Assembly (NCBI GenBank): GCA_903952785.1
Contig: CAJBHC010000064.1
Location: 1-32,046 of the forward strand
Reading direction: 5' to 3'
DNA: 32,046 nucleotides
Source: an uncultured bacterium
GTDB lineage: Bacteria > Patescibacteriota > Minisyncoccia > Phycocordibacterales > CAIZLB01
Part shown: positions 379-23,009 of the stretch, piece by piece
Layout of the letters: every line of letters starts with the position of its first letter
Position numbering within the stretch: the first letter of the stretch is position 1
Notes under the pieces: generated by a model
The model's input: only the letters and a program-made list of their open reading frames with translations
Databases searched by the model: none
Told to the model about the DNA's origin: nothing
Made by a program: the position numbers and the translations under genes

Positions 379-512
379 TAAAATCCTATAATTCCTACTC
401 TCAGGGAAACTTGCGAACTGCAGTGAGCAGATGATTTCCGTTCCCCATAAGGAAATCACGTTTTCAGCAGAAAAATGGCGTGTTCCCTGAGGGTAAGAAT
501 TATGGAATTTTA
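379..512. repeat. Structured dispersed repeat, copy 1 (74-nt core 409-482 inside 30-bp imperfect inverted arms)
   Basis: Core matches 22696-22769 at 68/74. Arms 379-408 and 483-512 are reverse complements with 4 C/T differences. Confidence 0.9.
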
Positions 513-535: not shown

Positions 536-544
536 TGCTATAAT
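536..544 (+). promoter_or_regulatory. Extended -10 promoter of murG (near-leaderless)
   Basis: TGC-TATAAT, 8 nt before the ATG at 553. Confidence 0.65.
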
Positions 545-552
545 CTATACAT

Positions 553-1695
553 ATGAAGATATTGCTTACAGGAGGTGGCACAGGAGGCCATTTTTACCCA
601 CTCATAGCGGTTGCCGAGGAAATTCGTGAGGTAACTCATAGAGAGAAAATTCTTGCGCCAAAGATATATTATATGGCTAATTCGCCATATAATTCTAAAG
701 TTCTGTTTGATCAAGAAATTGAATTTGTGCATGTTTCTGCTGGAAAAAAAAGGATTAACCCTCAAGGAATTTCTAAGCTTTTAAACTTAATAGATGTCTT
801 TAAAATGGGCTTTGGTATTATGACCGCTGTCATAAAAATGTACTTCATAATGCCAGATGTTATCTTCGCCAAGGGAGGCTTTGTAAGTTACCCAGCACTT
901 TGCGCGGGAAAGTTTTTCAAGATTCCAATAATAATTCATGAATCAGATAGCGTCCCAGGAAGGGTTAGCAAATGGGCAGGTAAGTTTGCTACTAAAGTTG
1001 CAGTCTCATATAAAGAAGCATCCGTGTTTTTTGATGAAAAAAAAGTAGCGTATACAGGTAATCCTGTTAGAACTGAGATCAGTCAGATACTTTCACACGG
1101 CGCTGGCGAATATTTAGGACTTGAAGAAAATGTCCCTGTAATATTTGTAACAGGAGGATCTTCAGGTGCAAAGATAATTAACAACATTATTCTTGAAGCC
1201 TTACCAAGACTCGTAGAAAAATATCAGGTAATCCACCAAACAGGGAAATTGAATTTTCAAGAAGTATCAAGATCTGCTGATGTAATATTGGAAAATAATC
1301 CTCACAAAAATAGATATAAACCATATGATTATTTAAATGCGCTTTCAATGAGGATGTCAGCAGGTGCCGCTAGCGTTATAATTTCTCGTGGAGGATCTCA
1401 AATATTTGAAATTGCTCTATGGGAAATTCCAGCAATCATAATTCCAATTACAGATTCAAATGGCGATCATCAACGTAAAAATGCATACAACTTCGCAAGA
1501 AGTGGAGGCTGTGTGGTTGTAGAGGAAGCTAATTTGAATACAGAAATTATTCTAAATGAAGTAGATAGAATCGTCACAAATACACATGTTAGAGGAAAAA
1601 TGATAGAAGGGATGAAGGAATTTAGAAGACCAGACGCGGCAGAGTTAATTGCAAAAGAAGTTTTAAAAATTGCATTAGGTCATGAAATACAATAA
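553..1695 (+). CDS. murG: UDP-GlcNAc:lipid I N-acetylglucosaminyltransferase
   Basis: GGGTGGH, KGGFVS, HESD, GNPVR, GGSSGA, SRGG and HQRKNA motifs. Confidence 0.97.
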   Translation: MKILLTGGGTGGHFYPLIAVAEEIREVTHREKILAPKIYYMANSPYNSKVLFDQEIEFVHVSAGKKRINPQGISKLLNLIDVFKMGFGIMTAVIKMYFIMPDVIFAKGGFVSYPALCAGKFFKIPIIIHESDSVPGRVSKWAGKFATKVAVSYKEASVFFDEKKVAYTGNPVRTEISQILSHGAGEYLGLEENVPVIFVTGGSSGAKIINNIILEALPRLVEKYQVIHQTGKLNFQEVSRSADVILENNPHKNRYKPYDYLNALSMRMSAGAASVIISRGGSQIFEIALWEIPAIIIPITDSNGDHQRKNAYNFARSGGCVVVEEANLNTEIILNEVDRIVTNTHVRGKMIEGMKEFRRPDAAELIAKEVLKIALGHEIQ

Positions 1696-14567: not shown

Positions 14568-15137
14568 CTATATCTCCATCTCTTTATTAGAGAAAGGTTT
14601 GATCAAATTATCTAAATAACAAGCAGGATCTTCGCATGGCCAATCATATAATCTGATATTTGCTATATTTTTAGAATTGTAGGAATTCATTATGTATCTT
14701 TGATGCAAACTTGAATATTTCCAATCCAAGACATTATCTACAAATCCAGCAGTGAGAGGGTTTCTTTCAACATACCTAATAACAGTTTCAAGATGCTTTT
14801 GATCTTTTATTAAGAATGATTTAAATCTACCTTGGTATAAATGCCCTGTTCCAGTTGTATTATTATCTTTATGACACCTTTGTGTATGAACCACCGTCAG
14901 CCATTTCATAAAATGTGACAGCTCTTTATCATATCTTGTCTTTATCACGATATGAAAATGATTGTTCATTACAACATAAGCTACAATATCTGTGTCAAAC
15001 ATCTCTTGCGCATCTGATAAAACATTCATAAATAACGCAAAGTCTTTCTCAACGAAATTTATTTTTAGCCTTGCGTTGGCCCTATTTATATAATGATAAT
15101 ATCTATCTGCGATATCTATTCTTGGTTGTCTTGTCAT
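14568..15137 (-). CDS. REP-associated tyrosine transposase (RAYT, HUH Y1 family)
   Basis: MTRQPR..YYHYINRAN, AYVVMNNHFHI (HUH), GHLYQGRFKS, RYVERNP (catalytic Tyr), WKYSS; ATG at 15137. Confidence 0.93.
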   Translation of the reverse strand: MTRQPRIDIADRYYHYINRANARLKINFVEKDFALFMNVLSDAQEMFDTDIVAYVVMNNHFHIVIKTRYDKELSHFMKWLTVVHTQRCHKDNNTTGTGHLYQGRFKSFLIKDQKHLETVIRYVERNPLTAGFVDNVLDWKYSSLHQRYIMNSYNSKNIANIRLYDWPCEDPACYLDNLIKPFSNKEMEI

Positions 15138-15232
15138 CCCTATATAATAAACATATCGACATGAAATAAACCCGAAGATTTTATAAAGAATTAACAAACA
15201 ACAACATTACAACATCTTTTTTACATCATGTA

Positions 15233-15289
15233 TGGGGTCAGGCCCCAATTAAGACATGATTTATGAAAAAGGTGTGGGGCCTGACCCCA
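15233..15289. repeat. REP-like doublet (perfect 15-bp inverted repeat, each arm itself palindromic)
   Basis: TGGGGTCAGGCCCCA (15233-15247) and TGGGGCCTGACCCCA (15275-15289) with a 27-nt spacer, upstream of the RAYT. Confidence 0.85.
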
Positions 15290-15292
15290 AGA

Positions 15293-16804
15293 CTAAATGG
15301 CCAAATGATCACTATCGCCCATAAAAATAGTTCTGTTCTCGCTTGTCATGTTTTTCATAAATTTATTGATTCTCTCATCAATCATAATATGACGCCTAAT
15401 CAAAGGAGTTTTCAATATCATACCTTCCAGACTTCTGCATCTACTGAGCGCAACATATGCCTGACCATGAGTGAATGTTCCCCTACCAAAATCAACTATT
15501 ACATTATTGTATGTCTTCCCTTGTCCCTTGTGAATTGTGATTGCCCAAGCAAGTCTAATTGGAAACTGTGCAAATGTTCCAATGACATCCGTATCAACGG
15601 AGTCAAAATCTTTATCATATGAAAATTTAACCATCTCCCAAGTATATTTTGGAACGAGCGCTTCTACGCCATTTTCTAGTCTCACGTAAATTTCTTGTTT
15701 ATATTCATTTATCTTTGTAACAGTTCCAAGATCTCCATTAACCCATCTCCCCTCTTTGTCATTATTGAGCATCATGATTCTAGCGTTCTCCTTAAGAGCC
15801 AAATCTTCATTGGTTGGCAAATTTCTCTCAAACATTCCGCTTTTCTTGCCTTTAAAAATTATTTTATTTGACTCCAACTCATTTAATTTTCCATTATTAA
15901 TTGCATCTGCCATTGCATTGGTTGTAACAAGAAAAATATAATCATTAAATATCGATGGATCAAGGTTTTCATCCATTGGATCTTGATGTCTTTTATTCAA
16001 TAAGTCCAAATGTGAGTCTCTAATATTTCCACTTCTAATTCCTTCCAAAATATCTATGAATTTACTATCATCCTGTCTATAAATTTTATTTAGTTCAATT
16101 AATTTAAAATCCGCATCAATAAAAACTTTTGAATCAAAAAAGTATGGACTTTTATAGTACGATGAAAACATCTCCTCCTCATAACTGGTTACAACTGGTG
16201 GAAGTTGAAATAAATCCCCCACTGCAATAATTTGTACACCTCCAAATGGTAAGTTTTTATTTTTACCATTCAAACGCATGAACATATCAACACAATCAAG
16301 AAGATCTGCTCTAACCATTGAAATCTCATCAATGATTATTGAATCTAGGTTTTTATAAATTGCAGTACTCCCTGTCGCTTTTTTAATTGAAACAGGGCTG
16401 ACGTTTATTCCAAATTTAAAGAATGAATGAATTGTTTGACCTCCAATGTTCACAGCTGAAACTCCAGTTGGAGCAAGAATCACAACTTTCTTTTTTGTAT
16501 TTTCTTTAAAATATTTTAAGAGCGTAGTCTTACCTGTCCCCGCCTTCCCTGTTAAAAAGATATTTTGTGATGTACTCTCCATGGAATTTAGCGCCATGAG
16601 TGTTTCATCACTCAACTCTATTTTTTCACCATTTATATAAAATCCATCTTTTTTAGAAACTCCTCCACCCCCTTCTGCTTCTGCTTTTTCTTTTGCAATT
16701 TTGGCTAAAGTTTTTTTAAAGGTCTCCGTTTTTGAAGGGCCCGCTTTTTTCTTGGCGCCGCCGTCTGTGTATTTTTTAAATTTAGAGTATGAGGAAAATG
16801 CCAT
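15293..16804 (-). CDS. PIF1/RecD-like SF1B DNA helicase
   Basis: FLTGKAGTGKT, LAPTG, GQTIHSFF, IIDEISM, PFGG, GDLFQLPPV, QFPIRLAWAITIHKGQG, YVALSR; ATG at 16804 sits 7 nt after TGA-TATAAT. Confidence 0.93.
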   Translation of the reverse strand: MAFSSYSKFKKYTDGGAKKKAGPSKTETFKKTLAKIAKEKAEAEGGGGVSKKDGFYINGEKIELSDETLMALNSMESTSQNIFLTGKAGTGKTTLLKYFKENTKKKVVILAPTGVSAVNIGGQTIHSFFKFGINVSPVSIKKATGSTAIYKNLDSIIIDEISMVRADLLDCVDMFMRLNGKNKNLPFGGVQIIAVGDLFQLPPVVTSYEEEMFSSYYKSPYFFDSKVFIDADFKLIELNKIYRQDDSKFIDILEGIRSGNIRDSHLDLLNKRHQDPMDENLDPSIFNDYIFLVTTNAMADAINNGKLNELESNKIIFKGKKSGMFERNLPTNEDLALKENARIMMLNNDKEGRWVNGDLGTVTKINEYKQEIYVRLENGVEALVPKYTWEMVKFSYDKDFDSVDTDVIGTFAQFPIRLAWAITIHKGQGKTYNNVIVDFGRGTFTHGQAYVALSRCRSLEGMILKTPLIRRHIMIDERINKFMKNMTSENRTIFMGDSDHLAI

Positions 16805-16897
16805 AGCTAGAATTATATCATACCCCACAGAACTCCACTCTTAAAATTATCCAAAATGTGGTTTATAAAATGAAATAATAAAGCAATAAACAAAATG

Positions 16898-22674: not shown

Positions 22675-22790
22675 AAAATCTCCCTGCCATGAAAGACTTG
22701 CGAACTGCAGTGAGCAGATGATTTCCGCTCCCCATAAGGAAATCACATTTTCAGCAGAAAATCTCCGTGCTTTCATGGCAGGGAGATTTT
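22675..22790. repeat. Structured dispersed repeat, copy 2 (74-nt core 22696-22769 inside perfect 21-bp inverted arms)
   Basis: AAAATCTCCCTGCCATGAAAG / CTTTCATGGCAGGGAGATTTT flank the same core as 409-482. Confidence 0.9.
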
Positions 22791-22800
22791 AAGTGAATCT

Positions 22801-22954
22801 GTGAACCCGACAGGACTCGTCCCTTACAGGGACTGTACAGGTTTCGTATCGTGCTCGCCGTCCAAATACAGACGGCTCCGCGCGATAAACTCCACCTTGA
22901 AAACAAAAACCGCCGAAGCGGTTTTGTTTTCTACGGTGGACCCGACAGGACTCG
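22801..22954 (-). mobile_element. 135-bp hairpin-rich element bounded by a duplicated tRNA-Ala 3' end (att-like)
   Basis: GTGAACCCGACAGGACTCG (22801-22819) vs GTGGACCCGACAGGACTCG (22936-22954), 18/19 identical. Confidence 0.6.
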
Positions 22955-23009
22955 AACCTGCCACCCCCTCAGTGCAAGTGAGGTGCTCTACCAGATGAGC
23001 TACGGGCCC
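22937..23009 (-). tRNA. tRNA-Ala(UGC)
   Basis: GGGCCCG/CGGGTCC acceptor with G3:U70, anticodon arm CCTCA-cttgcac-TGAGG, GGTTCGAGTCC T-arm; CCA not encoded (ACCG). Confidence 0.96.

Follow-up and report, generated by a model that had tools for sequence, protein, structure and literature searches.

Which kind of element keeps a branched loop constant and lets its ends vary? The question is raised by two hairpins in positions 1–32,046 of contig CAJBHC010000064.1 (assembly GCA_903952785.1), a stretch of DNA from an uncultured bacterium that was analysed over its full length and is called the window below. A preliminary description, made from the letters of the window, regarded the hairpins as a 74-nt core held in interchangeable inverted-repeat arms. 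It proposed an undescribed mobile element, or a structured RNA or single-stranded DNA module, that inserts into or generates palindromes and is possibly moved by an HUH enzyme such as the RAYT encoded in the same window. We assign both hairpins to an uncatalogued family of intergenic hairpin repeats, which extends across the window's whole order of Candidatus Saccharibacteria. Genomes, contigs and loci carry G, C and L numbers throughout.

A multi-copy family of intergenic hairpins

Shorter relatives of the window copies were found by blastn-short on contigs C28, C91 and C41 of the same genome (876 kb in 99 contigs, 88% complete), with a remnant on C73; all of them have no middle hairpin. A covariance model, R1, was built from 17 distinct copies aligned by MAFFT and comprises 17 bp of the closing stem P1, followed by the hairpins P2 and P3. 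With this model the window's genome contains five full copies and the C73 remnant. R1 matches occur in 25 of the 50 genomes of the window's family, with up to 17 copies per genome. At the level of the order, 151 genomes were sampled and 48 had matches, the largest number per genome being 21. The 105 copies fall into 76 loci, one of which is common to two genera. All copies examined are intergenic, and element length is 100–135 nt across family members.

An exact sequence pattern detected the family in 6 of 61 genomes, including G000, and a reversed control pattern gave no matches. A pattern scan of genome contigs matched 36 stretches, 13 of them with the match lengths of the family; twelve of these 13 also fitted a stricter pattern, and the remaining one, L028, was recovered by R1. 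The other 23 stretches had no adjoining CTTRYGA motif, and several came from unrelated phyla.

At Rfam 15 gathering scores, tRNA-Ala alone passed in the whole window, with no match for the element. A search of positions 300–600 at E values up to 10 returned four weak matches at chance level, the best being snoF1_F2 with 21.2 bits (gathering score 60), and none to the hammerhead, twister, pistol or hatchet ribozymes. No description of the element was found in the literature searched, whose scope was without subscription journals and supplementary files, so that a prior description is possible. The comparisons of the core with the genome and with Rfam that the preliminary description had proposed yielded further copies and no Rfam family, and its postulated undescribed, structured module is supported, as a multi-copy intergenic one. 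The objection it had foreseen, a stock of only two copies with no covariation, is answered by a multi-copy family in which every helix covaries, and the recurrence goes well beyond what chance would give.

Conserved core and covarying helices

The core of the family is a three-way junction of roughly 50 nt, which caps the long closing stem. P2 starts with a UUGC/GCAG stem, which leads through an invariant tandem G.A internal loop to a short tip of variable sequence. P3 has a variable stem closed by an AGCA loop, and the junction itself has the invariant bases A-C, A-G and G-U. Base conservation was counted in 90 copies from 10 genomes. One reverse-strand duplicate had been removed before this count and before the GC-skew, shared-arm, gene-orientation and stop-codon counts given below. 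The 2×2 tandem G.A loop within P2 is formed by G24 (97%), A25 (99%), G34 (96%) and A35 (99%). In the P3 loop, A51 and A54 are present in all copies, G52 in 94% and C53 in 84%. G65 (100%) and U66 (97%) are nearly fixed, and A18-C19 and A40-G41 are also conserved.

The helices are maintained by paired changes. In the 17-copy MAFFT alignment, 94.1% of cells pair versus 70.1% in shuffles (none of 500 shuffles equalled it), both partners vary in 25 of the 33 pairs, and slid controls pair at 42–48%. In the model-aligned set, with all 91 rows used and the alignment fitted to R1 itself, 95.2% pair versus 63.3% in shuffles, and all but one of the 33 pairs (32) vary in both partners. All ten P3 pairs change on both sides and the P2 tip pairs covary. 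Order-level members follow the same plan, some with a second G.A-type internal loop in P1.

A 27-nt middle hairpin, part of both window copies, is absent from three of the five copies in their genome (C28, C91 and C41). It is also absent from the ortholog of copy 1 at G005:C31, which has the same arms and a short core. It was seen at several other loci of the window's genus. This hairpin is an optional, genus-specific subfamily expansion between P2 and P3, and the 74-nt core is not supported as the unit of the family. Either of two processes, conversion of cores between copies or nested insertion, would account for the short core of the G005 ortholog. Other expansions of ~40–55 nt between P2 and P3 were observed at G072:C60 1993–2137 and G035:C7 9923–10052. 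Because different expansions occupy the same place, the P2–P3 junction appears to be an insertion hot spot.

Evidence for a single-stranded fold

The conserved features belong to one strand. On the opposite strand the tandem G.A loop would consist of C/T mismatches, and U.G, again a feature of the + strand alone, forms the basal pair of P2 in 78 of 91 rows. Among the arm pairs, G.U is more frequent than A.C, with 50 against 25 under symmetric scoring (p 0.005; 24 versus 10 by copy), as counted in the 87 of 105 copies with no more than three non-transition mismatches in a gapless register. R1 scores ~102 bits on the forward strand versus ~24 bits on the reverse. The G.A loop, the U.G pair and the G.U excess are all properties of one strand and indicate a single-stranded fold of the element strand (+), in agreement with the strand-specific fold proposed earlier. 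The folding molecule is most likely RNA; single-stranded DNA is also possible, and the evidence does not separate the two.

No bias toward a replication or coding strand was found in 95 copies. Element strand relative to GC skew was positive in 42 and negative in 53, skew over at most 20 kb being only a proxy for replication strand, and orientation relative to the local coding majority was 45 versus 50.

The two window copies

The features of both copies are listed in Table 1. Their cores are identical at 64 of 66 positions (409–474 versus 22696–22761, blastn), and direct reading of the next 8 nt adds four matches, which reproduces the 68/74 reported previously. The 30 arm positions of copy 1 comprise 26 Watson-Crick, two G.U and two A.C pairs; together with the wholly paired 21-bp arms of copy 2 and the outer AAAATC as their only common sequence, this agrees with the original account of the clamping stems. 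The three core hairpins are all present as claimed, RNAfold recovering each of them for copy 2, and both copies do share the + orientation. None of 200 shuffles folded as well as either whole copy, and the 74-nt cores alone gave z values of only −1.3 and −1.7 for copies 1 and 2, respectively.

Table 1. Coordinates of the two hairpins and of associated features in the window.
Feature	Position	Strand	Remark
Copy 1, long form, whole hairpin element	379–512	+	R1 match 72.6 bits; RNA fold z −6.7
Copy 1, 5' arm of closing stem P1	379–408	+	pairs with 483–512
Copy 1, P2: UUGC/GCAG stem, AC/GU tip, UGCA loop	411–430	+	read from sequence
Copy 1, tandem G.A in P2	415–416 with 425–426	+	read from sequence
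Copy 1, optional extra hairpin UGAUUUCC(11 nt)GGAAAUCA between P2 and P3	432–458	+	long-form expansion
Copy 1, P3 tip UUUUC-AGCA-GAAAA	461–474	+	conserved loop, covarying pairs
Copy 1, conserved junction G-U-G preceding 3' arm	480–482	+	G65, U66 conservation
Copy 1, 3' arm of P1	483–512	+	pairs with 379–408
Copy 2, long form, whole hairpin element	22675–22790	+	R1 match 77.5 bits; RNA fold z −7.4
Copy 2, 5' arm	22675–22695	+	21/21 Watson-Crick with 22770–22790
Copy 2, P2 with tandem G.A	22698–22717	+	sequence and fold
Copy 2, optional extra hairpin	22719–22745	+	sequence and fold
Copy 2, P3 AUUUUC-AGCA-GAAAAU	22747–22762	+	sequence and fold
Copy 2, 3' arm, UUUU at its end	22770–22790	+	sequence
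TGcTATAAT, extended −10 of murG	536–544 (TATAAT 539–544)	+	read from sequence; murG ATG at 553
RAYT-like Y1_Tnp gene	14568–15197	−	52.6 bits

Misassembly had been named among the results that would refute the proposal. Contigs of sequencing run X3 span 22–440 and 411–561 with no differences and, since they cover both junctions, copy 1 is no assembly artefact. This check was made on contigs only; X3 and the probable source run, X1, belong to one study, and the X1 contigs include no piece across about 252–408. In a contig of run X2, from an independent lake study, position 93 is joined to 516 and 94 other letters replace 94–515. We read it as a related, co-occurring strain that probably has a different arrangement upstream of murG.

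Arms diverge with their loci

The arms of the 105 copies have a median length of 26 bp (range 17–47) and a locus-specific sequence; 38 arm pairs are wholly Watson-Crick, and 59 have no pairs other than Watson-Crick and G.U. Between loci, the inner 3–5 bp alone are conserved. Within G072 (17 copies), and likewise within G035 (13 copies), hardly any junction base differs, and the P1, P2-tip and P3 helices are unrelated in sequence. The outer arms are likewise unrelated in G072, G035 and the window's genus, g1, and shared arms were found only in a G073 subfamily, in which two unrelated loci carry an identical 24-nt arm segment.

Related copies document how the arms change. Those of the C91 and C41 copies are identical at 16 of 26 positions and, by direct reading, all ten changes are compensated; the two cores differ at two compensating positions. 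Orthologous arms drift along with their loci, and no other match to the arms was found within the window's genome. The arms are therefore shown not to be swappable cassettes, as the term interchangeable had implied, but sequences that are homologous between related copies and drift by compensated changes. Selection appears to maintain the individual copies, since within one genome the helices vary from copy to copy and the unpaired core bases remain fixed.

At one orthologous locus (L112 on G001:C29, L113 on G003:C13 and L093 on G004:C19), the element lies inside an outer inverted repeat, GAAGGTGGGGGTTTGTC ... GACAAACCCCCACCTTC, giving ~52 paired positions in total, with a TTGACA box in the 3' half.

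Placement and polarity

The 3' side of the element has preferred neighbours, which differ between genera. In genus g1 a −10-like hexamer lies 15–40 nt past the 3' end at 15 of 24 loci, compared with four on the 5' side (p 0.0027), and at many loci the element ends 23–34 nt before the hexamer; copies with flanks shorter than 60 nt were excluded from the −10 position counts. At the murG site, TGcTATAAT starts 26 nt past copy 1 and 9 nt ahead of the murG ATG, and it was not listed by a consensus promoter scan. At the C41 site the promoter is already present in the empty allele.

The sister genus g6 has 46 scorable loci, 35 of which are followed by a gene encoded on the opposite strand (p 0.0005). 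Of 43 copies with such a convergent gene, 34 have its stop codon 2–25 nt away from the model edge and one more has it overlapping the edge at −5; co-oriented upstream genes end a median of ~120 nt away. The −10-like sites were found at 11 of 46 versus 13 of 46 loci on the two sides. Gene adjacency was tested with open reading frames (ORFs) of at least 100 aa, which replaced a noisy test with 38-codon open frames. At the site of copy 2, G001 and G005 carry the element 13 nt from the 3' end of tRNA-Ala, a position held by ordinary short terminators in G002 and G003. Copy 2 follows the g6-type placement rule.

A T-run of at least four residues was present at the 3' end in 39 of 105 copies versus 28 of 306 control 16-mers (9%). 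The last letters are TTTTA in copy 1 and TTTT in copy 2, and the flank just past the 3' arm is T-rich on the + strand, flank composition and −10 scores having been compared in 103 of the 105 copies.

Two further observations concern these sites. TGnTATAAT promoters 8–10 nt before an ATG were seen in the window (536–555), at L082 (~1600–1640) and at several loci of the genus; since the distance is this short, murG and other mRNAs may be leaderless or near-leaderless. Right after copy 2, at 22801–22821, there is a duplicate of the tRNA-Ala 3' end (TGTGAACCCGACAGGACTCG). The real tRNA-Ala (22935–23009, − strand) is ~120 nt from the duplicate and has its own small bidirectional terminator at 22906–22925. 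The duplicate looks like an att-like remnant of integration.

Gain and loss of copies

The C41 copy has a clean empty site at G005:C35, where the whole hairpin, arms and core together (~104 nt), is the indel. There is no palindrome at this empty site, and no target-site duplication is evident at this single clean filled/empty pair. The copy is also absent in G001–G004, and the murG-site copy is absent in G002. The whole hairpin is thus shown to be the unit that is gained or lost. The earlier view that copies come and go is supported; insertion into pre-existing palindromes is not. Two further G005 loci and the C91 locus are not clean indels, because of rebuilt intergenic DNA or broken synteny. 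G000 and G005 have nearly identical flanks at the tRNA-Ala site but different arms and core types; G001 looks like a recombinant of these two versions.

Divergent pairs of copies (− then +), 0.25–0.9 kb apart, bracket a short conserved segment at G003:C55 7376–7815, G005:C6 24564–25559 and G031:C13 4890–5934. The G072 copies on C10, C6 and C2 (L172, L173 and L175) are located at or within ~55 nt of contig ends, and some contig ends in the window's genome coincide with element loci (C61/C73). These repeats break assemblies.

A proposed polar boundary element and its alternatives

The descriptive part of our interpretation, a branched, selected and strand-specific hairpin family, is well supported. 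Taken as a whole, the interpretation that we favour describes a selected element that folds as a single strand, probably as RNA, serves as a polar transcription boundary and spreads rarely; we consider it about evenly balanced between right and wrong. The boundary role is inferred because the 3' side abuts an outward promoter in g1 or the stop codon of a convergent gene in g6. The long stem would act as a terminator or insulator that keeps transcription out of the next unit, and the three-way junction could be the platform for a host protein. Spread would be rare and would involve a non-autonomous unit and a mechanism without the RAYT.

Several observations weigh against this interpretation. 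With regard to transcription, no conserved upstream promoter was found, the −10 scores being alike on both sides of 103 copies, and the sequencing runs listed for the organism include no RNA run. Upstream-gene orientation is near random (53 same versus 36 opposite strand in 95 copies), and the downstream-gene bias in genus g1 is only a trend (15 versus 7 loci, p 0.13). The 3' T-run is missing from 66 of 105 copies, a 5' A-run is about as common (37 of 105), and the C91 and C41 copies have neither. A simple terminator scan listed neither window copy, because their loops exceed its limit. A single boundary role across both genera is our own inference, since g1 and g6 differ in what adjoins the 3' side.

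Other adverse points concern selection and partners. Decayed orthologs exist (the C73 remnant, mismatched arms at G001:C42 and a second copy at G003:C55); therefore, not every copy is essential. No binding protein or mobilising enzyme was identified. Finally, drifting RNA stems typically contain G.U pairs at a level that makes 38 perfect arms in 105 look high. Because perfect Watson-Crick stems exceed this expectation, the data suggest that quasi-palindrome correction at the DNA level, a known mechanism, acts alongside selection. Such correction could also yield part of the apparent covariation.

The strongest alternative is a purely selfish mobile element, recognised by its structure and spread via RNA or DNA, with the junction as the handle for an enzyme acting in trans. 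It would have no host role, and its polar placement would reflect target choice or tolerated sites. Presence and absence do vary between species of one genus, and copy number ranges from 0 to 21 among related genomes. The identical arm segments at two unrelated G073 loci, the three G072 copies at contig ends, the decayed copies and the tRNA-Ala site, where near-identical flanks enclose entirely different arms and core types, are all in accord with it. However, unrelated helices within one genome combined with fixed unpaired bases fit per-copy selection better than recent bursts, and many loci are kept across species, one of them across two genera. Neither of two candidate enzyme families correlates with copy number (Y1_Tnp in 10 and RVT_1 in 28 of the 50 family genomes), and the one clean site has no evident target-site duplication. 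On balance, we regard a purely selfish element as unlikely.

Retron msr/msd elements have a reverse transcriptase beside them, and none of the 20 window ORFs scanned matched RVT_1. Reverse-transcriptase genes of ~340 aa occur in 28 of the 50 family genomes (for example, G000:C27:13541–14149 and G001:C29:2039–2461), one of them 1.8 kb from an element in G001:C29.

A bolder form of the polar boundary interpretation joins host role and mobility. It would make the hairpin a domesticated polar RNA device specific to Saccharibacteria, which would set transcription boundaries in genomes almost devoid of intergenic DNA and would copy itself to new boundaries by the same fold without its own transposase, the long stem and the G.A-bearing junction being read by a putative dedicated protein. 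We hold this to be decidedly unlikely; if true, such a domesticated self-copying device would constitute a structure-guided class of mobile regulatory element.

A regulatory site in double-stranded DNA would place the function in a cruciform. A protein would bind the branched palindrome upstream of promoters, and template-switch correction would keep the palindromes perfect. The g1 elements that end 23–34 nt before a −10 hexamer, the perfectly paired 38 of 105 arms and the failure to find a promoter for the element itself are consistent with this proposal. Against it, G.U pairs are twice as frequent as A.C pairs, a single strand conserves the G.A/G.A loop and the U.G pair, and the neighbour in g6 is a gene end and not a promoter. 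A cruciform site is improbable in our judgement.

The mechanism suggested in the preliminary description, a single-stranded DNA element moved by an HUH enzyme such as the window RAYT and inserting into or creating palindromes, shares with our interpretation the strand-specific fold. A T-shaped hairpin resembles the substrates of HUH nucleases, and a Y1_Tnp gene is present in the window (Table 1). However, PF01797 (Y1_Tnp), found in 10 of the 50 family genomes (79–99% complete), is in none of G072, G035, G073, G031, G016 and G017, which have 5–17 copies each and are the richest outside the window's genus. The window RAYT is flanked by its own inverted pair of GGTCAGGCCCC (15236–15286 listed), a palindrome that recurs on C83 and C52, and the two look like a separate REP/RAYT-type system unrelated to the hairpin family. 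Because of this phyletic pattern, the strand neutrality of the copies (42 versus 53 and 45 versus 50) and the distinct palindromes of the RAYT, mobilisation by this enzyme class is very improbable, and the empty site without a palindrome points the same way. A PIF1-like helicase gene (15293–16828, − strand) adjoins the window RAYT.

Least credible is a hairpin guide RNA, in which the arms would be spacer-like sequences directed against foreign DNA or RNA and the junction a protein scaffold, in a TIGR-like system or RNA interference: variable arms on a conserved scaffold and tandem G.A pairs reminiscent of box C/D-type motifs recall such a design, but the copies are dispersed singly and not in arrays, the arms have no other match in the window's genome, and orthologous arms drift with their loci. 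Nor did viral sequences supply targets. The whole C91 element had no match in 50,697 phage records, the core pattern had none in IMG/VR, and two 21-nt arms had none in viral sequences. One 18-nt arm had a single viral match, which was treated as chance because it does not extend beyond the 18 nt. In outline, TIGR stem arrays, which occur in candidate phyla radiation bacteria, are hairpins with palindromic stems and small conserved loop motifs, and their units are arranged in tandem beside a Tas (Nop-domain) gene with variable spacers in the loop (PMC12045711). Unlike TIGR units so outlined, the present copies are dispersed and have a conserved loop, and the Nop domain PF01798 was found in 0 of 50 genomes, although the Pfam model could miss a Tas protein of very divergent sequence. 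TIGR-Tas was set aside because of this absence and the dispersed copies. The alternatives that remain are, in descending order of likelihood, the selfish element, the DNA-level cruciform and the guide RNA.

Comparison with known repeats and structured elements

Repetitive extragenic palindromes (REP), with the related BIME and REPIN-RAYT systems, are short, multi-copy intergenic palindromes that form hairpins, often after genes. The present family resembles them as a many-copy intergenic hairpin repeat with a RAYT gene in the same window. In REP and REPIN, the arms are conserved and the loop varies, whereas here the loop is conserved and the arms vary. Unlike REPIN-RAYT systems, the family does not co-occur with Y1 transposases, and the window RAYT has a different palindrome.

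The Correia, ERIC, RUP and BOX elements are non-autonomous repeats of 100–150 bp, which form long hairpins in transcripts and can alter transcription. As repeats of the type of miniature inverted-repeat transposable elements (MITEs), they end in conserved inverted repeats, which a transposase recognises, and target duplications are made. Our hairpins are similarly intergenic, fold into hairpins and lie beside promoters or gene ends. In contrast to MITEs, their terminal sequences differ between copies, save for one young G073 subfamily, no duplication is evident at the clean site, and the conserved part is a covarying three-way junction. The view that conserved middle and variable ends invert the REP/MITE design was correct, with a family-wide branched cap and locus-specific arms.

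In 39 of 105 copies a T-run follows the stem, as in intrinsic (Rho-independent) terminators. The family also shares with these the position of the ordinary terminators of G002 and G003 at the tRNA-Ala site, and placement directly after stop codons in g6. It differs from them in its ~26-bp stem, its branched "loop" of 50–75 nt and the absence of a clear T-run from most copies. In the IS200/IS605-derived element PATE, orientation is tied to the replication strand, a relation that is not seen in the present 95 copies. The T-shaped terminal hairpins of parvoviruses, an analogy only, have a long stem and two small hairpins at a three-way junction and are read by a protein as a single strand. Unlike these, the present hairpins lack both a viral setting and a Rep or HUH partner. 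In contigs, and for the one site of copy 1, no joint that changes strand was listed, which leaves room for flip/flop forms.

Significance and other repeats

Saccharibacteria are ultra-small epibionts with rounded genome sizes of ~0.6–1.1 Mb and hardly any non-coding DNA. Up to 21 structured copies per genome across a whole order are conspicuous in such reduced genomes. With every helix covarying and an invariant tandem G.A loop, the family is a candidate new RNA family. Interspersed hairpin repeats and structured RNA motifs are already known as a kind; new here are the inverted design, a conserved branched loop with drifting arms, and its unusual breadth. One-sided abutment of promoters or gene ends amounts to a testable claim on the insulation of transcription units in reduced genomes. 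Arms that are perfectly paired yet diverge fast provide material for studying palindrome maintenance, and the repeats would be useful strain-level markers.

An inverted-repeat scan of the window's genome also detected clusters of ~30–39 bp perfect palindromes of the form ...TTGATATCGCAA(n)TTGCGATATCAA..., with loops of 0–1 nt, at C10:8600–9570 and C28:1228–1690. These clusters are a different repeat family.

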